Virus record (IMG/VR): IMGVR_UViG_3300028585_000533
Coordinates: 1-44,095 of that record
Reading direction: 5' to 3' (one strand)
Source of the DNA: a virus
Lineage: Duplodnaviria; Caudoviricetes
Length of the DNA: 44,095 bases
Shown piece by piece: positions 5,882 through 25,695 of this stretch. Under the pieces are notes generated by a model. It saw nothing but the letters and a program-made list of their open reading frames with translations. It was not told where the DNA came from and did no database searches. The position numbers and the translations under genes are program-made. Position 1 is the first letter of the stretch, and every line of letters starts with the position of its first letter.

Positions 5882-7642
5882 ATGTCCGAGATCACCCTCA
5901 CCGACCTCTTCGCTGGCGCCGGCGGCTCATCCACTGGCGCCCTGCAGGTCCCGGGCGTCAAGGTCCGCATCGCCGCGAACCACTGGCAGCTCGTCTGCGA
6001 CATCCACGCCCTGAACCACCCCACGACCGACCACGCCGTCGTTGACCTGCACCAGGAGCGGCCCTCGTTCTTCCCGAAGACCGACATGCTCTGGGCCTCG
6101 CCCGAGTGCACGAAGTGGTCGCAGGCCAACGGGAGCAAGATGCCCGCGATCGAGGAGGGCCTGTTCGAGGACCCGCTGTCCGACGACGCCAAGAACCGGT
6201 CCCGGCTGCTGATGTTCGACGTGCTCCGCTTCATCGACCACCACCGGTACCGGCTCGTCATCGTCGAGAACGTCGTCGACATCGCCACGCAGGCGAAGTA
6301 CCGCACCGCGTGGGACATCTGGCGGTCCGAGCTGCGCGCGCTGGGCTACCGGTTCCGGGTCGTGTCCTTGAACTCGATGCACGCGCAGGCCTACGGCGCG
6401 CCGGCGCCGCAGTCACGCGACCGCATCTACGTCGTCGCCTGGCCCGAGGGCGCCGTCGCCCCGGACCTCGACCGCATCCTTCGCCCGAAGGCGTGGTGCG
6501 ACCGCTGCGACACCCTCGTCGAGTCGGTGCAGTCGTTCAAGCGGAACCGCACTGTCGGCCGGTACCGGCAGGCGTACGTCTACTGCTGCTCGCGCTGCGC
6601 CCAGATCGTCGAGCCCGGGTGGCTGCCCGCCGCCGCGGCGATCGACTGGTCGCTGCCCGGTGAACGCATCGGAGACCGCCTCAAGCCGAAGACCCGGGCC
6701 CGCATCGCGGCCGGGATCGCCCGCTACTGGGGGCCGCTCACGCTCGAGGCGGCCGGGAACACCTACGACGCGACGTCGCCTCAGCACCCCCACCACGGCG
6801 ACCCCGACGCGTACTACCGCTCCTGGCCGATCGCCGAGCCCCTGCGGGCCCTGCACACGACGAACTCGAAGGCCCTCGCCGTACCCACGGAGGGCCGCGA
6901 CGGCAAGGAGGCCGTGCCCGTCACGTCGCCGATGCGCACCCAGACGACCCGCGCGGAGACCGCCCTCGCGCCCGCCCCGTTCATCGCCGAGATGTACGGC
7001 ACGTCAACCGCTCGCCCCGTGTCCGAGCCTGCCGGGACCTTCACCGCCGGCGGCAACCACCACGGGCTCGTGACGACTGCTGGCGGCTCATGGAACGACG
7101 AGACCCGCACGACCGAGATGCCGTTGCGTACTTTCACCACCAGGGACGCGAACGCGCTCGTGCAGCAGCCGTTCGTGACCCAGTTCCGAGACCGCGACGA
7201 CCGCAACCTCGACCCCGCCGCCGAGCCCCTCCGCACGATCGTCGCCGACGGAGCAGCCCACGCCCTCGTCACCCGCCACAACACCATCCGCGGTGCCGAG
7301 CAGGGCAGCCTCACCACGCGCGCCGACGACTACCTACGCACCCTGACCACGACCGCGAACCAGTCCGTGATGCGCCGCCCCGGGACCGTCACGGCCGCGG
7401 ATCTGCGCGAGGCCGAGGACATGGTCCCCGAGGTCCTGTTCCGCATGTTCCAACCCCACGAGGTCGCCGCCGGCATGGCCTTCCCTGCCGACTACAAGTG
7501 GCAGCCCGCCGACCGCGCCCGCCCCGTCTCGAACCGCGACCTGGTCCGCGCGGCCGGCAACGCCGTCACCCCGCCCGCCGCCCGTGACCTCATCGCGGTC
7601 GCCGTCGAGTCCCTCGGCCACGACGTCGCCCTCGTTGCATGA
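5882..7642 (+). CDS. DNA (cytosine-5) methyltransferase with expanded variable region
   Basis: Motif I DLFAGAGG, IV SPEC, VI ENV, VIII QSRDR, IX RMF.PHE...M.FP, X GNAV. Confidence 0.92.
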   Translation: MSEITLTDLFAGAGGSSTGALQVPGVKVRIAANHWQLVCDIHALNHPTTDHAVVDLHQERPSFFPKTDMLWASPECTKWSQANGSKMPAIEEGLFEDPLSDDAKNRSRLLMFDVLRFIDHHRYRLVIVENVVDIATQAKYRTAWDIWRSELRALGYRFRVVSLNSMHAQAYGAPAPQSRDRIYVVAWPEGAVAPDLDRILRPKAWCDRCDTLVESVQSFKRNRTVGRYRQAYVYCCSRCAQIVEPGWLPAAAAIDWSLPGERIGDRLKPKTRARIAAGIARYWGPLTLEAAGNTYDATSPQHPHHGDPDAYYRSWPIAEPLRALHTTNSKALAVPTEGRDGKEAVPVTSPMRTQTTRAETALAPAPFIAEMYGTSTARPVSEPAGTFTAGGNHHGLVTTAGGSWNDETRTTEMPLRTFTTRDANALVQQPFVTQFRDRDDRNLDPAAEPLRTIVADGAAHALVTRHNTIRGAEQGSLTTRADDYLRTLTTTANQSVMRRPGTVTAADLREAEDMVPEVLFRMFQPHEVAAGMAFPADYKWQPADRARPVSNRDLVRAAGNAVTPPAARDLIAVAVESLGHDVALVA

Positions 7643-18052: not shown

Positions 18053-18388
18053 ATGCCCCGCCACCGCCACCCCTCAGGGCCCCGCCCCCAGGGCACCCCC
18101 GACGGGCGCGACATCGCACCGTGGACCGGCCGCGCGCGCGCACGTGCCCTCGCCCGGGTGAAGGCGCAGGGCGCCCGGCACCGCACCCCGTGCGTCATCT
18201 GCCACCAGCCCATCGACTACTCGCTCGAGTACCCGCACCCCGACAGCTGCTCGGTGCAGCACATCATCGCCCGCAAGGTGCGCCCCGACCTGACGTGGGA
18301 CCCGAGCAACTGGGGTCCCGGTCATCTGGTGTGCAACCAAGCTGCGGGACCACGACCGGTGCTGGACCTCGGCATCACCGACACGTGA
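18053..18388 (+). CDS. HNH endonuclease (terminase-associated)
   Basis: CVICHQPID...SVQHII...DPSNWGPGHLVCN; AGGAG RBS; upstream of TerS. Confidence 0.85.
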   Translation: MPRHRHPSGPRPQGTPDGRDIAPWTGRARARALARVKAQGARHRTPCVICHQPIDYSLEYPHPDSCSVQHIIARKVRPDLTWDPSNWGPGHLVCNQAAGPRPVLDLGITDT

Positions 18389-18820: not shown

Positions 18821-18999
18821 GGGACAGGCTAGCGCGCCGCCTGGGTCCACCTGGGTCTACTGAGGGGTTCGGGCCGGGAGAGGGGCGCACAGCGCGCCGG
18901 GGCGGTCGTGAGCTGCGTGCAGGCGACCGGGCGGGGTAGACGGACCGTCCGGGTGCCAGGAATCACGAGCTGAGACCACAGGACGACGAGGTGAGTGCG

Positions 19000-19482
19000 A
19001 TGAGCGAGGAGCCGACCGAGCCGCCTGCGGAGGCTGCAGAGCCCGCGGCGCTGGTCGACCTCGACCTCGACCTGTCCCTCGTCGACGCCACGCGTCGCGC
19101 GGTCGCGGCTGAGCCTCGTCTGCGCGACCCGCGCTTCCATGCGGCGGTCGTGAACCTGATGCGCCTCGCTCGGAAAATCGACGCGTGGGACCAGATTGTC
19201 GAGTGGGCGCTGGAGGATGTCGCCGGCAAGGGCCGCGGCGGGCGGCCGGCGGTGCCGCAGAACGACAACGTCAGCGCGTCGGCGTACGCGAAGCAGCTCG
19301 AGCAGCTGGGCCTGACCCCGACGGGCCGGAAGGCGCTGGGCCGCCCCATCCGTGACTTCAACGAGCCCGAGCGCGAGACTCCCGCGACGGCGGCTGACGA
19401 GAAGGGCGGCGTCGGTGGCGGAGCAGGAGGCAAGGTCAGCAAGCTCGACGCCTACCGTGGACAGGCGTCCGCCGCGCGGTGA
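19000..19482 (+). CDS. terS: Terminase small subunit
   Basis: LARKID...Y.K.LEQLGLTPTGR, SKLDAYR; directly upstream of TerL. Confidence 0.85.
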   Translation: MSEEPTEPPAEAAEPAALVDLDLDLSLVDATRRAVAAEPRLRDPRFHAAVVNLMRLARKIDAWDQIVEWALEDVAGKGRGGRPAVPQNDNVSASAYAKQLEQLGLTPTGRKALGRPIRDFNEPERETPATAADEKGGVGGGAGGKVSKLDAYRGQASAAR

Positions 19483-21271
19483 CGGCTCCGACCACGACAA
19501 CGTGGTCTACGCCGGGTGGGAGGACCTGCCCGACGGTGTCCTCTACGGGCACGCGGTGCCCCGCATCCACACGAAGCCGCTGCGCGAGCTGCACGCGGGT
19601 CGTCATGACTCGTTCGGCCAGATGGTCGAGGCGCCGACGTCGCTGGGGTTCCTGTTCATCACGTGGGCCCGGGACATGTTCGGCATCCGTCTCGACCCGT
19701 GGCAGCGGTGGCTCGTCATCCACATGCTCGAGACCCGCCCCGACGACCGGCTGAGGTTCTCCACGGGCCTCGTGCTCGTGGCCAGGCAGAACGGCAAGAG
19801 CACGCTGTCGCAGCTGCTGTCGCTGTTCTTCATGATGGTCATGTCCTGGCCGGTCGTCGTCGGCACCGCGCAGGACCTCCCCACCGCCGAGGAGGTCTAC
19901 GAGGGCGCCATCGCGCTCCTGGAGGACGACGACGAGCTCGCGTCGCTCATCGCGGACCGCGGCAAGACCAACGGGAAGAAGTTCATCCGCCTCACCAGCG
20001 GTGAGCGGTACCTCGTGAAGGCCGCGAACCGGAAGGCCGGCCGCGGGCTGTCGGGCAACTTCGTGCTGCTCGACGAGCTCCGCGAGCAGCACAACTGGGC
20101 CGCGTGGGCCGCGATCACGAAGACCACGAACGCGCAGCGCAACCGGTTCATCCTCGGCCTGTCGAACGCCGGGGACCTCGCGAGCATCGTGCTGCGGCAC
20201 CTGCGGGAGGTCGCGCACCGGCAGCTCGGCGACCCTGACGGCATCCTCGTCCTCAGCGACGTCACGGCGCCGTCCGAGTTCGAGGTCGAGACCGACGGCG
20301 CCCCGGACCTGCTCGTCGACGTCGAGGACGGCGAGGAGCCGGGCGAGGACCAGCCGGTTACCGTCGCGGACCTCACGCAGTCGCCGGTGACGCTGTTCCT
20401 CGCGGAGTGGTCGGCGGAGCCCGGCATCGACCGGCGCGAGCGTCTGGGGTGGCAGCAGGCCAATGGGTCGCTGGGCTACCGCGGCATGCAGGAAGAGACC
20501 CTCGTCGAGCAGGTCGAGATCGACGCCGAGTGGACGTTCCGCACCGAGGTGCTGTGCCAGTGGCCGAGCACGTCTCTCGCGGGCCCGTTCCCGCCCGGGT
20601 CGTGGGAGGCGGGCGTCAACACCCTCGAGGACACTCCTGCCGGGCCGCGGGTCCGGGCTGAGGACCGCACGGTCGGGCCGCTCGACCTCTGCATCGACAT
20701 GAGCGAGGGCCGCGCGTTCACCTACGTTGCCGCGGTCGGGGTGCGCCCGGACGGGAAGCACCACGTCGTGATCCTCGCCGCCAGGCAGGGCACCGGCTGG
20801 GTGCGGTCGTTCATCATGCAGCACGCCGACCGGAAGCGGTTCCGGTACTGGACCGGGCAGGACTCAGGTGCCCCGGTGTCGGGCCTGGTGAAGACGCTCG
20901 TCGAGGACGGCACGTTCACGCTGCGGCACCGGCCGTGGAAGGGCGGTGACCTCATGGCCGCCTTCGGGTCCCTGTTCGATGCCGTGCGTGACGAGACGAT
21001 CCGCCACCACCGGCAGGCCGTGCTCGACATGGCCGCCGGCACCGCGGTCACGAAGCGGCTCGGTGACGCGTGGGTCATCGACCGCAGCGCATCCGAGATC
21101 GACGCGGCGCCGCTCGTGGCCGCGTCCGGTGCGTACTGGCTCGCGACCGCCCCGCCCCTTCGAGAGCTGCCGCCGCCGCCGGCGCCCGTGGCGCTCTCCA
21201 CCATCACGCCCGCCTCCGGACGCTCGCCCTCGACGACGGGTGGTGGTCGCTCGCGGCGGTTCGACTTCTGA
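19457..21271 (+). CDS. terL: Terminase large subunit (start uncertain)
   Basis: LDPWQ, Walker A ARQNGKS, Walker B VLLDELRE, SNAGD, nuclease acidic residues CIDMS and IDAAP. Confidence 0.92.
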   Translation: MDRRPPRGDGSDHDNVVYAGWEDLPDGVLYGHAVPRIHTKPLRELHAGRHDSFGQMVEAPTSLGFLFITWARDMFGIRLDPWQRWLVIHMLETRPDDRLRFSTGLVLVARQNGKSTLSQLLSLFFMMVMSWPVVVGTAQDLPTAEEVYEGAIALLEDDDELASLIADRGKTNGKKFIRLTSGERYLVKAANRKAGRGLSGNFVLLDELREQHNWAAWAAITKTTNAQRNRFILGLSNAGDLASIVLRHLREVAHRQLGDPDGILVLSDVTAPSEFEVETDGAPDLLVDVEDGEEPGEDQPVTVADLTQSPVTLFLAEWSAEPGIDRRERLGWQQANGSLGYRGMQEETLVEQVEIDAEWTFRTEVLCQWPSTSLAGPFPPGSWEAGVNTLEDTPAGPRVRAEDRTVGPLDLCIDMSEGRAFTYVAAVGVRPDGKHHVVILAARQGTGWVRSFIMQHADRKRFRYWTGQDSGAPVSGLVKTLVEDGTFTLRHRPWKGGDLMAAFGSLFDAVRDETIRHHRQAVLDMAAGTAVTKRLGDAWVIDRSASEIDAAPLVAASGAYWLATAPPLRELPPPPAPVALSTITPASGRSPSTTGGGRSRRFDF

Positions 21272-21286
21272 CGAAGGGACACCCAC

Positions 21287-22612
21287 ATGGCCGACGACGA
21301 CAAGACCGGGCCCGTCAACACGACGGCGAAGGGCTACGTGAACGGCGGTGTCGGGTACTACGTCAGCGGGTTCGACCCGAACGAGAAGAACCCCGCGTGC
21401 CAGTGGCCGGCATCGATCGGCACGTACGACGCGATGCTGCGGCAGGACGCGCAGGTCACGAGCGTGCTCCGTGCCCTCGTGCTGCCGATCCTGCGGACGT
21501 CGTGGAAGCTCGATGCGGCAGGCGCCGACCAGGAGGTCGTCGACATCGTCGCGGACGACCTCGGCCTACAGATCAAGGGGCAGGAGAACAGGCAGCCTCG
21601 CCGCACTCGCGATCGGTTCGACTTCCAGGAGCACCTGCGCCTGGCGCTGACGAAGCTGCGCTACGGGCACGCGTTCTTCGAGCAGGTCTACGAGGTCCGC
21701 GACGGCCGCGCCCGCCTGCGGAAGCTTATGTGGTTGCCGCCGCGCACGATCCGCGAGATCAAGGCCGCCCGCGACGGTGGCCTCGTCGGCATCCGCCAGG
21801 CCGAGACGGCGACGGGCGACCTCATCCCGGTGTCGCAGCTCGTCGCCCACATCAACGACCGCGAGGGTGGCAACTGGATCGGGCAGTCGCTGCTGCGGCC
21901 GGCGTTCAAGTTCTGGCGGCTCAAGGACATGGCCCTGCAGACCGAGGCGGAGACCCTCGAGCGGCAGGGCATGGGCGTGCCGAACTACACAGCGGCACCC
22001 ATCCCCGACGGCATGACCGACCCCGCCGACATGCTCAAGTGGCAGGAGAACGAGATCGCCCGAGGCGCTGCCTACGCGCAGGCCTTCCGCGCCGGTGAGA
22101 GCGCGGGCGGAGCCATCCCGAACGGCGCCGCGATGGAGCTCATGGGCGTCAAGGGCCAGCTGCCCGATGCCGACAAGGCGCTGCGCCGGTACGACGAGCA
22201 GATCGCCGGTGCGGTCCTCGCGAACTTCCTCAAGCTCGGCGGCTCCGACTCGACCGGGTCCTACGCGCTCGGGACGACGTTCGCGGACTTCTTCACGATG
22301 AGCCTGCAGGCCGTCGCGAAGGATCTCGCCGCGACGATCAACGCGCACGTCGTCGAGGACCTCGTCGACCTGAACTGGGGCGTCGACGCCGTCGCGCCGC
22401 GCGTGGTGTTCGACGAGATCGGCACGACGCACCCGGTGACGGGCGAGGCCATCCGCGCGCTCATCGAGTCCGGCGCGATCCGCGCGGACGACGACCTCGA
22501 GCGCGACCTGCGCACGAAGTACGGCCTGCCGCAGCCCGACACGGCGTCGACCCGCACCTACAAGGGCAACACCGGCAAGGGCGCCGCCGAGGACGAGGGG
22601 GTGGCCGCATGA
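21287..22612 (+). CDS. Portal protein (DUF935/Mu gp29-like)
   Basis: YDAM..D..V.S.L, GHAFFEQVY, G.SLLRPA...W..K, GSYALG; position after TerL. Confidence 0.9.
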   Translation: MADDDKTGPVNTTAKGYVNGGVGYYVSGFDPNEKNPACQWPASIGTYDAMLRQDAQVTSVLRALVLPILRTSWKLDAAGADQEVVDIVADDLGLQIKGQENRQPRRTRDRFDFQEHLRLALTKLRYGHAFFEQVYEVRDGRARLRKLMWLPPRTIREIKAARDGGLVGIRQAETATGDLIPVSQLVAHINDREGGNWIGQSLLRPAFKFWRLKDMALQTEAETLERQGMGVPNYTAAPIPDGMTDPADMLKWQENEIARGAAYAQAFRAGESAGGAIPNGAAMELMGVKGQLPDADKALRRYDEQIAGAVLANFLKLGGSDSTGSYALGTTFADFFTMSLQAVAKDLAATINAHVVEDLVDLNWGVDAVAPRVVFDEIGTTHPVTGEAIRALIESGAIRADDDLERDLRTKYGLPQPDTASTRTYKGNTGKGAAEDEGVAA

Positions 22613-24384
22613 CGGTCACGATCGTCGTCGGCGCCCCATGTGCCGGCAAGAGCACCTACGTGGACGCGGAGCACGCGGACGACGACGTGGTCGTCGACTT
22701 CGACCGGCTCGCACAGGCCCTCGGCTCGAGCACCCCGCACGACGCGACCGACGACGTGCGGCGCGCCACGCACGCGGCCCGGTACTCGGCCATCGCGCAG
22801 GCCCTCGAGGTCGAGACGGACTCCTGGGTCGTGGAGACGTCGCCGACACCCGAGCGGGTCGCGCTGTACGTCGACGCGGGCGCCGAGTTCGTGCTGCTCG
22901 ACCCGGGCATCGACATGTGCCTGCAGCGCGCGGAGGACGACGACCGGCCCGAGGGCACGGATGACACCATCCGCGCCTGGTACGAGGACCCGCCGGTGCT
23001 GCCCGACACCACACGCCGCGTCGAGGACGTGGCCGCCAGAGCCGCCCGAGGGCGAGAAGGAGTCACCATGTCCGACCGCAACCCCTACGGCGCCCCGCAG
23101 GCCGACCGGCCCGAGTGGTACCGCGTCGGCAACGTCGTGCGCGACGAGGCCCGCGGCACGTCATCGGCCGAGATCTGGGTCGACGACGTCATCGACCCGT
23201 GGTGGGGCATCAACGCGTCGACGTTCCGGCAGGAGCTCGCCGCGCTCGACGTCGACCGGATCACCTTGTACGTCAACTCGCCCGGCGGGTCGGTGTACGA
23301 GGCCATCGACATGATGAACAACCTGCGCCGGCACGACGCGCACGTCACCGCGGTCGTGAACGGTCTGGCCGCGTCGGCGGCGTCGTTCCTGATCCTCGGC
23401 GCGGACGAGGTCGTCATGGCCCCGCACAGCGAGCTGATGATCCACGACGCGTCGACGATCGTGTGGGGCAACGCCGAGGACATGGAACGCACCCTCGCGG
23501 ACCTCAACCGCATCAGCGACAACATCGCGTCGATGTACGCCGAGAAGGCCGGCGGCGCCCCCGAGGACTGGCGGGTCCGCATGATCGCGGAGACGTGGTT
23601 CACGGACCGCGAGGCCGTCGAGATGGGCCTCGCCGACCGCGTCGAGGGCACCACCCGCACCAACGTCGAGGACCGCTTCGACCTGTCGGCCTTCGCCCAC
23701 GCGGGCCGCTCGCACGCACCCGCTCCGGAGTCGACGTCGACCGTCGCCTCCCTCCGTGACCGCGTGATGCGGTCCGGCACCGTCTCCCCGGCCGACGCCG
23801 TGCAGCAGGTCGCTGCGCGCCTCGTCGCTCGGGCACCGAAGCCGCCGACGCCGTCGGAGGACAGCACCACCACCCACGACACGAGAGGAAGCGACCGCAT
23901 GGACGCGACCATCCGACAGGGGTTCATCGACGCGCTCGGCATCACCGATGCTGACGCGACCGACGAGGCGATCCTCGCCGCGACCCGCGAGGCGCTCGAC
24001 GAGCGTGCCGACGCGGACGCACCCTCCGCCCCGACCGCAGCCCTGCCGGGCACGACGGTCATCGACAGCACGCAGCTCGAGCAGCTGCAGCGCGACGCCG
24101 CCGCCGGCCGCGAGGCCCGCGACCAGCAGAACGCCGACCGTCGCACCGCGGTGCTGAACCGCGCGATCGACGAGGGCCGCATCGCCCCCGCGAACCGTGC
24201 CGCGTTCGCTGCGCTGCTCGACGCCGACGAAGCGGGCACGACCGCCCGCATCGCCGACATGGCGCCCGTGTTCAACACGACGCCGAAGGGCTACCAGGGC
24301 GGCGTCAAGGAGTCCAGCGACGCGGGCTCGGTCACCTACGACATGTTCTGGCCCGAGGCCGACACGACCACGAAGGGGGCCTGA
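22609..24384 (+). CDS. Fusion: P-loop kinase-like domain + ClpP-type prohead protease + scaffold
   Basis: GAPCAGKST; NSPGG, AASAAS, MIHDA; helical C-terminal scaffold; internal in-frame RBS+ATG at 23068 and 23899. Confidence 0.85.
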   Translation: MTVTIVVGAPCAGKSTYVDAEHADDDVVVDFDRLAQALGSSTPHDATDDVRRATHAARYSAIAQALEVETDSWVVETSPTPERVALYVDAGAEFVLLDPGIDMCLQRAEDDDRPEGTDDTIRAWYEDPPVLPDTTRRVEDVAARAARGREGVTMSDRNPYGAPQADRPEWYRVGNVVRDEARGTSSAEIWVDDVIDPWWGINASTFRQELAALDVDRITLYVNSPGGSVYEAIDMMNNLRRHDAHVTAVVNGLAASAASFLILGADEVVMAPHSELMIHDASTIVWGNAEDMERTLADLNRISDNIASMYAEKAGGAPEDWRVRMIAETWFTDREAVEMGLADRVEGTTRTNVEDRFDLSAFAHAGRSHAPAPESTSTVASLRDRVMRSGTVSPADAVQQVAARLVARAPKPPTPSEDSTTTHDTRGSDRMDATIRQGFIDALGITDADATDEAILAATREALDERADADAPSAPTAALPGTTVIDSTQLEQLQRDAAAGREARDQQNADRRTAVLNRAIDEGRIAPANRAAFAALLDADEAGTTARIADMAPVFNTTPKGYQGGVKESSDAGSVTYDMFWPEADTTTKGA

Positions 24385-24385
24385 C

Positions 24386-24745
24386 ATGGCCGAGCAGGAG
24401 TACACCGAGCGCTTCACCCCGGGGCACGACGTCACGTTCGCTGTCGGCGACGACGTCCGCGCCGGCCGCGTCGTCGAGGTCACCGGCAACCGCCAGATCG
24501 CCGAGACCAGCGGTGCCTCCGCGAAGGTCGCCGGCGTCGCCGCCGAGGACCGCAAGGCCGGCGGCGACGTCGTCGTGAAGCACGGCAAGTGGCACGACCT
24601 CATCGCCTCGGGCGCGATCACCGCAGGTGACCGTGTCGCGTCGGCCGCGGGCGGCACCGTCGCCACGGCGACCCAGAACACCATCGGCCTCGCGATCGAG
24701 GGCGCCGCCGACGGGGCAACCGCCCTCATCCGACTCGACCAGTAA
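24386..24745 (+). CDS. Capsid cement/decoration protein (DUF2190-like)
   Basis: GVAA.D...G..V.V...ASGAITAGD.V; between protease and capsid. Confidence 0.75.
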   Translation: MAEQEYTERFTPGHDVTFAVGDDVRAGRVVEVTGNRQIAETSGASAKVAGVAAEDRKAGGDVVVKHGKWHDLIASGAITAGDRVASAAGGTVATATQNTIGLAIEGAADGATALIRLDQ

Positions 24746-24756
24746 GGACAAACGAC

Positions 24757-25695
24757 ATGGGCACTCAGTACCCGGCGGAGCCGGTCACCCTCTCCCAGAA
24801 CAACACGGTGCAGGAGGTGCACCACCTGCTCGACCAGCCCGAGATCATCGCGCGTCGAGAGCAGACGCTCACCGACCACGGCTTCATCGCCGACTACATC
24901 CTCCCCGGCCGCTACGAGGCGGTCGGCGGAGCGATCGTCTACGAGACCGGTGGCGAGACCATCTTCCCGACCGGGTCCCCGGAGCGCGTCGCCCCCGGCG
25001 GCGAGTACCCCCTCACGTCGTTCAACAACGGAGCGCTGGCCACCGCGCGCACGGTGAAGTGGGGACAGGACGCGTACGTCACCGACGAGGCGATCAAGCG
25101 CCAGCGTCTGCAGCCCGTCGACCGGGGCCTCCGCAAGCTCGCCAACGGCATGATCCGCCACATCGACTCGGTGGCACTCGGGCTCATCGGGTCGGCGGTC
25201 AAGACCACGTTCAAGGCGTCGGGCGCCTGGTCGGACATCGAGCGCGCCGTCGAGGACATCCTCGTGAAGACGGCGCAGCGCGAGCAGGACCTGATCGGCG
25301 AGGGATTCGACTTCCAGACCGTGCTGCTGACCCCCGTGCAGCACGCGCAGCTGACGGCGTGGCTCATCAACAGCGACAAGCTGCCGCGCGAGGCGGGCAA
25401 CCCGCAGTTCACCGGCGTCGTGTCCGGGTACCTGGACAAGGACTGGGTCAAGAGCAAGTACCTGCCGTTCAACGACCCGATGATCCTCGACCGCAACTTC
25501 CTCGGCGGCATGGCCGACGAGGACCTCGGCTCGCCCGGCTACGTCCGCAGTGCGGAGGGCGTCGGCGTCGAGACGAAGGTCATCCGCGACGACGACAACG
25601 ACCGCTACCGCCTCCGCGCGCGTCGCGTCACCGTGCCCGTCGTCATGGAGCCCCTCGCGGGCTTCACCATCACCGACACCGGCCTCGCGGCCTGA
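24757..25695 (+). CDS. Major capsid protein
   Basis: 312 aa, V.PGGEYP, KWG....TDEA, C-terminal V.EP.A; position; TAAGGA RBS. Confidence 0.88.
   Translation: MGTQYPAEPVTLSQNNTVQEVHHLLDQPEIIARREQTLTDHGFIADYILPGRYEAVGGAIVYETGGETIFPTGSPERVAPGGEYPLTSFNNGALATARTVKWGQDAYVTDEAIKRQRLQPVDRGLRKLANGMIRHIDSVALGLIGSAVKTTFKASGAWSDIERAVEDILVKTAQREQDLIGEGFDFQTVLLTPVQHAQLTAWLINSDKLPREAGNPQFTGVVSGYLDKDWVKSKYLPFNDPMILDRNFLGGMADEDLGSPGYVRSAEGVGVETKVIRDDDNDRYRLRARRVTVPVVMEPLAGFTITDTGLAA

Follow-up and report, generated by a model that had tools for sequence, protein, structure and literature searches.

A P-loop kinase-like domain joined in frame to a phage head maturation protease and nested scaffold, and its recurrent fusion to phage head proteins

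Why should a phage encode a nucleotide-kinase-like domain in one reading frame with its prohead protease? The question is raised by the provirus record IMGVR_UViG_3300028585_000533 (44,095 bases, 92 % complete), analysed here over its whole length and hereafter called the window. Its open reading frame (ORF) at 22609-24384 on the + strand runs uninterrupted for 591 amino acids, and the first ATG overlaps the stop codon of the portal gene as ATGA. The following parts were distinguished, each given with the evidence on which it is based.

22595..22603, + strand: Shine-Dalgarno-like site of start 1 (GAGGGGGTG); duplex score -11.7 kcal/mol, the strongest of the ORF
22609..22992, + strand: P-loop kinase-like domain, residues 1-128; AlphaFold2 model with predicted local distance difference test (pLDDT) 95.7, structural alignment with VIA-align, conservation, ratio of nonsynonymous to synonymous substitution rates (dN/dS)
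22993..23067, + strand: open linker, residues 129-153, with the Shine-Dalgarno sequence of the protease, AAGGAG (23057-23062); contigs and relatives
23068..23898, + strand: ClpP-type head maturation protease from start 2 (M154); NF045542, Ser and His motifs
23899..24384, + strand: Mu gpZ-like scaffold from start 3 (M431); Pfam Mu-like_Pro, start kept in relatives

The original prediction, made from the letters of the window, placed a kinase-like domain, a ClpP-type protease and a scaffold in a single 591-amino-acid ORF at the portal stop, and this holds by the Pfam and NF045542 matches and the ATGA overlap. The kinase domain had been drawn over residues 1-153; in the AlphaFold2 model the fold ends at about residue 128, and residues 129-153 form a linker, which is likely the region where cleavage would occur. 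The domain carries a P-loop (G8-T16), D30-x-D32, H44, R58 and a lid with R107 and R113-P114. Residues 3-115 match Pfam AAA_33 (PF13671) with an expectation value (E) of 1.7e-5 and 25.6 bits, which falls short of the gathering score of 27 bits that many relatives exceed, and the domain matches PHROG 4581 (E 7e-30) and PHROG 9644 (E 2e-23); NCBIfam has no model for it. The protease scores 164.1 bits against NCBIfam NF045542, 'head maturation protease, ClpP-related' (cut-off 120), and keeps the ClpP catalytic motifs, Ser256 in AASAAS and His279 in IHD, both invariant in alignment A3. It is encoded between the portal and capsid genes, as ClpP-related head maturation proteases are, and the tblastn matches of relatives that lack the kinase begin at residues 155-170. 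Residues 431-591 match Mu-like_Pro with E 1.5e-5 and 25.1 bits, just below the cut-off of 25.2. Single-sequence AlphaFold modelling of residues 1-364 gave pLDDT 42 and no usable domain packing.

The fusion is real, and not the product of an assembly error or of a stop codon lost around 23040-23067, which is ruled out by contigs of two other runs that cross the kinase-protease junction (X2, 22857-23159; X3, 22703-23186) with zero indels; none of the 20 listed differences between contigs and window inside the ORF creates a stop. The X1 contig, identical to the window and perhaps the source of its DNA, was left out of the count of independent contigs, and runs X4 and X5, with small shares, were left out as evidence. 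The linker is open in the related loci L002, P0002 and P0003 as well, and between the window and L002 the kinase domain has dN 0.145 and dS 0.705 (dN/dS about 0.2), which points to purifying selection. Long open frames further upstream in L002 and L036 were considered as fusions of their own and rejected, being read as overlap with the portal gene in DNA rich in guanine and cytosine (GC).

In-frame start codons were scored by their pairing to the anti-Shine-Dalgarno word (kcal/mol). At start 2, AAGGAG lies 5 nt ahead of the ATG at 23068 and scores -7.6; at start 3, GAGAGG (23883-23888) lies 10 nt ahead of the ATG at 23899 and scores -5.8. Each of the three nested starts that had been proposed thus has a Shine-Dalgarno-like site, and both inner ones are conserved in relatives. 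The long isoform had been supposed to be of low copy number, and this part of the proposal is not supported, since start 1 has the strongest site of the three (-11.7 against -7.6 and -5.8) and rarity of the long isoform is therefore not predicted. If all three starts are used, the predicted products are nested proteins of 591, 438 and 161 amino acids.

Relatives were assembled as 116 clusters at 85 %, made up of the 80 top loci from viral contigs, the 80 top loci from genome contigs, phage BFK20 and the window, and 80 metagenome loci added a further 56. Since these loci are the top scorers of longer hit lists and were retrieved with P-loop patterns, and since the clusters are related, cluster counts are not numbers of independent events. 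A score of -5 kcal/mol or stronger was reached by the kinase-protease junction window in 42 of the 57 fusion clusters and by 89 of 391 control windows taken from the same genes (p 9e-14), and one of -9 or stronger in 17 of the 57 as against 3 of the 391. In the independent metagenome set a junction start is present in all 16 protease fusions and scores -5 or stronger in 10, a level that none of five kinase-HNH fusions reached. By these scores the inner starts appear as a mark of head-protein fusions and not of kinase-HNH fusions. The scaffold start is kept in all 17 relatives whose alignment extends to it, 12 to 15 codons ahead of a conserved LG (-12 to -15), and the boundary reaches -7 or stronger in 16 of the 17, compared with 4 of 136 controls.

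The original prediction did not recognise a nucleoside triphosphate (NTP)-binding domain on a maturation protease as a known arrangement, yet the architecture recurs, in PHROG 9644, in corynephages and in fusions to both ClpP-type and HK97-type (S78) proteases. A profile search at E up to 1e-10 returned 1,972 clusters formed at 50 % identity. Scans of viral contigs with a single sequence found 0 loci for the kinase domain and 0 for the protease, so that alignments were required. Residues 1-140 gave 65 matches among proteins of 325-1035 amino acids, namely 12 ClpP (including the query), 52 S78 and 1 unlabelled. The 116 clusters comprise 50 kinase-S78, 8 kinase-ClpP and 1 ClpP-kinase fusion, 2 kinase-scaffold and 4 kinase-collagen-like fusions, 18 HNH-kinase and 2 kinase-HNH fusions, and 31 members that are stand-alone or unresolved. 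Among the 56 metagenome clusters are 16 kinase-S78 fusions, 9 HNH fusions and 12 in which a stand-alone kinase lies immediately upstream of the gene for the terminase large subunit (TerL). The top 150 profile hits include 78 longer proteins, of which 41 carry S78 (3 also capsid), 3 ClpP, 4 collagen, 2 a DUF4355 scaffold and 3 HNH, while 4 more match scaffold PHROGs. The kinase is fused at either end of unrelated partners (P0110, L117), and across Actinomycetota, Bacillota and other phyla fusions are seen with four types of head protein that are unrelated to one another. One locus with the kinase split across two frames (L154) was excluded from trees and fusion counts.

In 84 clusters the kinase lies directly ahead of the protease gene; it is fused in 74, mostly with the protease's own start kept, and in 10 the stop is retained. 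These ten give some ground for regarding the fusion as tolerated read-through, in which the kinase acts as a late protein of its own, disappearance of the stop does no harm since the protease keeps a start and cleaves the linker, and gene swaps at the start codon preserve the frame. A retained inner start would be expected after any such fusion, and the clusters are related: a fast tree of 141 rows shows 12 fusion-state changes, and a quick tree with 47 of 118 inner branches open needs 25 label changes, only 2 per protease type being forced by the starred branches. The linkers argue otherwise. In 71 of 73 fusion clusters (L093 and L126 were dropped, the anchor motif missing) they have 23 different lengths, from 6 to 39 codons, and all are in frame and free of stops, whereas after shuffling a stop is expected in 21.6 of the 71. 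Together with the recurrence on four unrelated head-protein types across phyla, this makes tolerated read-through quite improbable in our judgement.

The kinase was found at 1 of 80 sampled ClpP head-protease loci, the other 79 having none within the flanks examined (79 of 82 loci in the sample had at least 600 nt upstream), and the phages Nandita and Yeezy, whose genes stand in the same order, have no kinase near the protease gene. On this distribution the domain is best regarded as an optional accessory module. The same absences, together with fusions to proteins that are not proteases, make it unlikely that maturation is nucleotide-dependent, as had been offered as one explanation. A domain that gates protease or packaging in response to NTP would fit the observation that the kinase is always encoded in the head or packaging module where the context is seen, and that ORF61 of phage A2, a stand-alone member, is annotated 'small terminase subunit'; the product of this ORF reportedly binds the cohesive-end (cos) region. 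Such gating is hard to reconcile with partners that are unrelated and attached at either end, with an inner start that gives a kinase-free protease, or with the keeping of a general-base-type aspartate as in a phosphotransferase, and we rate it very improbable.

Rare partners lead us to lean toward end healing. One protein joins the kinase to a 2H phosphoesterase and a protease (P0037); in L127 a HAD-like domain (PHROG 1238, judged as HAD from motifs) is fused ahead of the kinase-protease; and RapZ_C is fused to the kinase in P0200. RapZ C-terminal domains that stand alone and carry a CxxGxHRS motif also lie next to it, between portal and kinase-protease, in BFK20 gp4 (L001:3494-3775), L104:4633-5001 and L195; we take their C-x5-R spacing to resemble that of cysteine phosphatases. 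Rhodococcus-type loci have a domain of about 70 amino acids (PHROG 5120/1761) after the kinase, free in L084:5390-5722 and joined to the front of a protease-capsid polyprotein in L073:5393-7264. Other unlabelled domains are apparently fused ahead of ClpP head proteases in L322:2186-3373 and L287:1940-3436, the former having a strong start further upstream and another Met at the boundary to the protease; a two-start cargo design may be general. In four loci (L034, L038, L045, L072) the kinase is fused to collagen-repeat proteins directly ahead of the head-tail adaptor, and in three of these the fusion is preceded by glycosyltransferase genes, which themselves come after the capsid gene.

What kind of enzyme is carried in this way? 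The model has strands at 3-8, 27-29, 72-76 and 93-97 and a helix-loop-helix lid (101-110/117-126). VIA-align ranks PSTK first (Z 13.7, root-mean-square deviation (rmsd) 2.8, 133 aligned) and the CthPnkp kinase second (Z 13.5, rmsd 2.9, 136 aligned), followed by the Mucorales RNA 5'-OH kinase (12.4), Pnkp1 (11.9), T4 Pnk (11.8) and Kti12 (11.6), and Foldseek ranks CthPnkp first with adenylate kinases close behind. Family profiles compared with natural PDB sequences match Pnkp1 and CthPnkp best (E 2e-4 to 1e-3); a single-sequence PDB search with the domain gave chance matches only, and the homologue P0069 retrieved only 'AAA domain' clusters, mostly viral, from the ESM Atlas. With T4 Pnk, CthPnkp, Pnkp1, the Mucorales KIN and PSTK/Kti12 the domain shares a four-stranded P-loop fold with lid, the P-loop Lys/Ser, an aspartate after strand 2 and the lid arginines. 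It differs from the Pnk group in having no arginine at D+3 and an invariant D-x-D, in H44 and R58, in its length of about 125 amino acids and in an identity of 13-16 %, and the family is normally without an attached phosphatase or ligase.

The CthPnk mechanism needs the P-loop, a general-base Asp, lid arginines and an Arg at D+3 (PMC3902929); the P-loop Lys and Ser/Thr, a general-base-type Asp and the lid arginines are present in the domain. D32, the equivalent of Asp35/Asp38, aligns with the D of NRD in Pnkp1 by sequence alignment rather than superposition. The top 150 profile hits provided 151 aligned stretches, in which G8, G13, K14, D30 and D32 are conserved at 100 %, S/T15 at 98 %, R58 and R107 at 90 % each and R113 at 98 %, with similar motif conservation in long or fused and in short or free forms. 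Judged from sequence and fold, the domain is a predicted hydroxyl kinase close to the Pnk group, without being classed as a Pnk.

Several cultured phages carry the same domain. In BFK20 gp5, phi673/phi674 gp4 and the LGCM phages it stands on the head protease gene, and those of BFK20, phi673 and phi674 (PHROG 9644, 'head maturation protease') have 32-41 % identity to the window domain and follow the portal region. BFK20 shares with the window a Shine-Dalgarno sequence and ATG at the kinase-protease junction; the proteases of these three phages, unlike that of the window, are of the HK97 type without a nested Mu-type scaffold, and they are annotated solely as proteases. The words 'kinase' and 'ATPase' have 0 occurrences in the available part of the phi673/674 paper (PMC6132909), and neither there nor in the available part of PMC7824862 is a kinase domain on a head protease mentioned. 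According to the note in its record, BFK20 gp5 has 'experimentally confirmed presence among structural proteins'. Other members lie in packaging modules, where they are linked to the HNH gene: Tortellini gp76 (profile E 4e-36), Gordonia phage McGonagall gp27, CL31 clg01 (two kinase domains and HNH, profile E 1e-61) and A2 ORF61 of PHROG 4581 (E 6e-26, stand-alone, next to an HNH gene). These are stand-alone or HNH-fused at the cos end and near-neutral, as against head-fused and acidic in the window; 'polynucleotide kinase' for Tortellini and McGonagall and 'terminase small subunit' for A2 are annotation names. A distinct putative terminase subunit is encoded by A2 ORF1, and the label of ORF61 (L244:2001-2435) may underlie that of PHROG 4581 and many 'terminase small subunit' names. 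Tandem kinase domains fused to an HNH-like nuclease occur in CL31 clg01 (L245:1997-3268) and P0090, and in the first copy of CL31 clg01 the D-x-D is changed to GSD.

Parts of this picture are already known. Lambda gpC/gpNu3 is a nested protease-scaffold gene, and T4 Alt and the internal proteins are comparable cases of cargo loaded into the head. The original statement that nested protease/scaffold genes are known is supported for Mu, whose gpI/gpZ protease gene contains a second start, in frame, from which the scaffold is made (PMC4378225); the window shares this start and adds a third, upstream one together with an enzyme domain. The ClpP-related head proteases of Arthrobacter phage Nandita (gp8) and Gordonia phage Yeezy (gp4) share the portal-protease-cement-capsid order and have no enzyme domain. 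Enzymes fused to MuF, portal and a capsid-processing peptidase have been described as likely packaged cargo (Iyer et al., PMC9503650, PMC5512222), so that there, as proposed for the window, an enzyme on a head-assembly protein would be packaged and injected. Those enzymes are Nudix on the peptidase, 2H and ADP-ribosyltransferase (ART) on MuF and portal, and a zeta-like kinase on MuF, not the Pnk-like family, and the available accounts are silent on retained inner starts. No paper on a kinase domain at a head protease was found in the openly readable literature, most subscription journals being outside reach. This locus adds the three-start form with ClpP and Mu-type scaffold, the repeated joining to unrelated head proteins and a connection with HNH-linked genes.

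Best able to account for the open frame, the three conserved Shine-Dalgarno-like starts, the intact, selected motifs and the repeated fusion to head proteins is, in our view, a long isoform that loads an end-healing kinase into the prohead, where it is predicted to act on 5'-OH nucleic-acid ends; we hold this tentatively, with somewhat less than even confidence. The course of events that we infer, from translation at all starts through co-assembly, release and activity to the substrate, would be as follows. The 591-amino-acid isoform would co-assemble into the prohead through its scaffold end, and the protease would cut the linker and free the kinase inside. The kinase would then phosphorylate 5'-OH nucleic-acid ends, most likely of the phage's own DNA, at packaging or just after ejection, and host DNA ligase would seal the healed ends. 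Other phages would bring the same enzyme to the packaging machinery by HNH fusion or by a position in the terminase operon. DNA is favoured over RNA as the target because the packaging module with HNH and terminase is the other constant partner and because no RNA ligase was recognised among the 44 window ORFs compared with PHROGs. The kinase, optional among related loci, would probably be a safeguard against host-inflicted breaks, since host ligase could seal the ends and no phage ligase was seen in the window. Carriage of the enzyme into the head, one of the two roles first suggested for the fusion, stands as a possibility given the repeated fusion to interior head proteins.

Healing of RNA in the next cell is a rival to this reading. 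The kinase would be kept in the mature head, enter with the DNA and heal 5'-OH RNA ends, for example those of transfer RNA (tRNA) cut by host defence RNases. The combinations of kinase with 2H and with HAD correspond to the healing halves of Trl1 (PMC11571804) and T4 Pnk (PMC7824862), and enzymes on MuF, portal and capsid-processing peptidase are proposed to be injected (PMC9503650). The lack of a recognisable RNA ligase extends to the annotated neighbour clusters of relatives, the window has no tRNA genes, the few copies per head would be small against an RNase response, and the HNH- and terminase-linked forms would be left unexplained; injected RNA repair is accordingly unlikely.

A number of observations weigh against loading of an end-healing kinase. 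Arg38/Arg41, three residues past the catalytic Asp, is essential in CthPnk and T4 Pnk (PMC3902929), and this position is Ala35 in the window and Ala in 89 % of the family, as read from an ungapped alignment; R58 might stand in for the missing arginine, and with this replacement 5'-OH ends are a candidate substrate. The small-molecule kinases are only a little behind the best structural matches (chloramphenicol, gluconate and shikimate kinases, Z 10.9-10.4, shikimate 10.4). The window domain, with a net charge of -19, is strongly acidic, which is odd for a nucleic-acid enzyme. Net charge is -4 or lower in 64 of 74 protease-fused kinases and 7 of 67 unfused ones, with medians of -8 and +1 for protease-fused and other forms, a difference that holds in both GC classes; it fits life beside acidic head proteins and is ill-suited to DNA binding, although after correction for kinship (4 independent pairs, median p 1; underpowered) the shift is no longer significant. 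The partners with end-healing phosphoesterases are single cases. BFK20 carries Glu at the position of Asp32, and its record note is silent on which part of gp5 was seen. The HNH-kinase fusion BH1 ORF57 is absent from the 17 proteins identified by liquid chromatography-tandem mass spectrometry in the available part of PMC6950654, and CL31 clg01 is not named in the virion section as available (PMC8002715), so that encapsidation is not general for the family. Phages phi673/674 have 3'-protruding cos ends (PMC6132909) and CthPnk requires a single-stranded 5'-OH end (PMC3902929); their 5' ends would thus be recessed.

Some of these points would be better served by an enzyme acting late in the cytoplasm of the producing cell, where it would modify a nucleotide-type immune signal or antiviral metabolite. 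The fusion would then tie when it is made, and in what amount, to head proteins that set off host alarm, and entry into the head would be incidental. Besides the missing Pnk arginine and the acidic charge, the shikimate/gluconate-type folds score Z 10.4-10.8, and D-x-D plus an arginine in the next helix is, we presume, a likeness to kinases of that type. HNH-fused, stand-alone, fibre-fused and protease-fused forms share late expression and not the head interior, and the same slot holds other small accessory domains (RapZ_C in BFK20 gp4, L104 and L195; PHROG 5120). In addition, prohead proteases activate the cyclic-oligonucleotide-based antiphage signalling system (CBASS) late in infection (PMC12991175). 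The best structural and profile matches are nucleic-acid kinases, however, and cytoplasmic action needs no fusion, yet 74 of the 84 protease-adjacent clusters are fused; we regard late cytoplasmic counter-defence as rather unlikely, if the likeliest of the rival readings.

The setting of the ORF is that of a temperate phage head module. The + strand of the window holds replication genes, an HNH gene, terminase, a Mu-like portal and head and long-tail genes, and the neighbours of the fusion are the following.

18053..18388, + strand: HNH endonuclease of the packaging region; Pfam HNH E 5.5e-4, PHROG 338 E 2.9e-18
18991..19482, + strand: terminase small subunit; Pfam Terminase_6 E 1.1e-10
19352..21271, + strand: terminase large subunit; weak Pfam TerL_ATPase match (E 0.04), between small subunit and portal
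21287..22612, + strand: portal protein, its stop overlapping the kinase start (ATGA); Pfam Portal_Mu E 6e-54
24386..24745, + strand: head cement/decoration protein; Pfam Phage_cement_2 E 2.6e-8
24757..25695, + strand: major capsid protein; Pfam Phage_capsid_4 E 1e-19, PHROG 1650

The interval for the terminase large subunit is the longest open frame, and the real start is probably further inside. The HNH gene is unfused here; in relatives HNH is the other frequent partner of the kinase domain. Homologues of the cement protein are named 'scaffolding protein' in PHROG 673 and in SEA-PHAGES records (Nandita, Yeezy); of the two, the nested gpZ-like product is the stronger candidate for the scaffold. 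An actinobacterial host is probable, since the nearest cultured relatives of the head genes are Arthrobacter and Gordonia phages. Elsewhere in the window (5882-7642), a DNA methyltransferase-like ORF of 586 amino acids (PHROG 116) is far longer than the matched stretch of the profile, which suggests a large insertion.

Taken broadly, and more doubtfully than the reading for the window itself, minimal phage kinases of one widespread family may have been hitched repeatedly to unrelated head proteins, among them two protease folds, several scaffolds and collagen-like proteins, with a two-start design that would yield cargo-bearing and cargo-free isoforms. This would be a general head-loading route by which, in small temperate phages, a counter-defence enzyme, whether end-healing or signal-neutralising, enters the prohead and reaches the next host, and the cos-side 'small terminase' and 'polynucleotide kinase' proteins would be the same enzyme brought in through the packaging machine. 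Cultured carriers are phi673 and BFK20 (Corynebacterium glutamicum/Brevibacterium flavum), Tortellini (Mycobacterium smegmatis) and A2 (Lactobacillus casei). If the architecture alone holds, the result is a correction of annotation. If the proposal is true, about 2,000 clusters that at present go by the names protease, small terminase or polynucleotide kinase would gain a function as one family, small temperate phages would be credited with a further candidate counter-defence enzyme, and the protease-scaffold gene would be seen to offer a simple natural means of loading a folded enzyme into the head.

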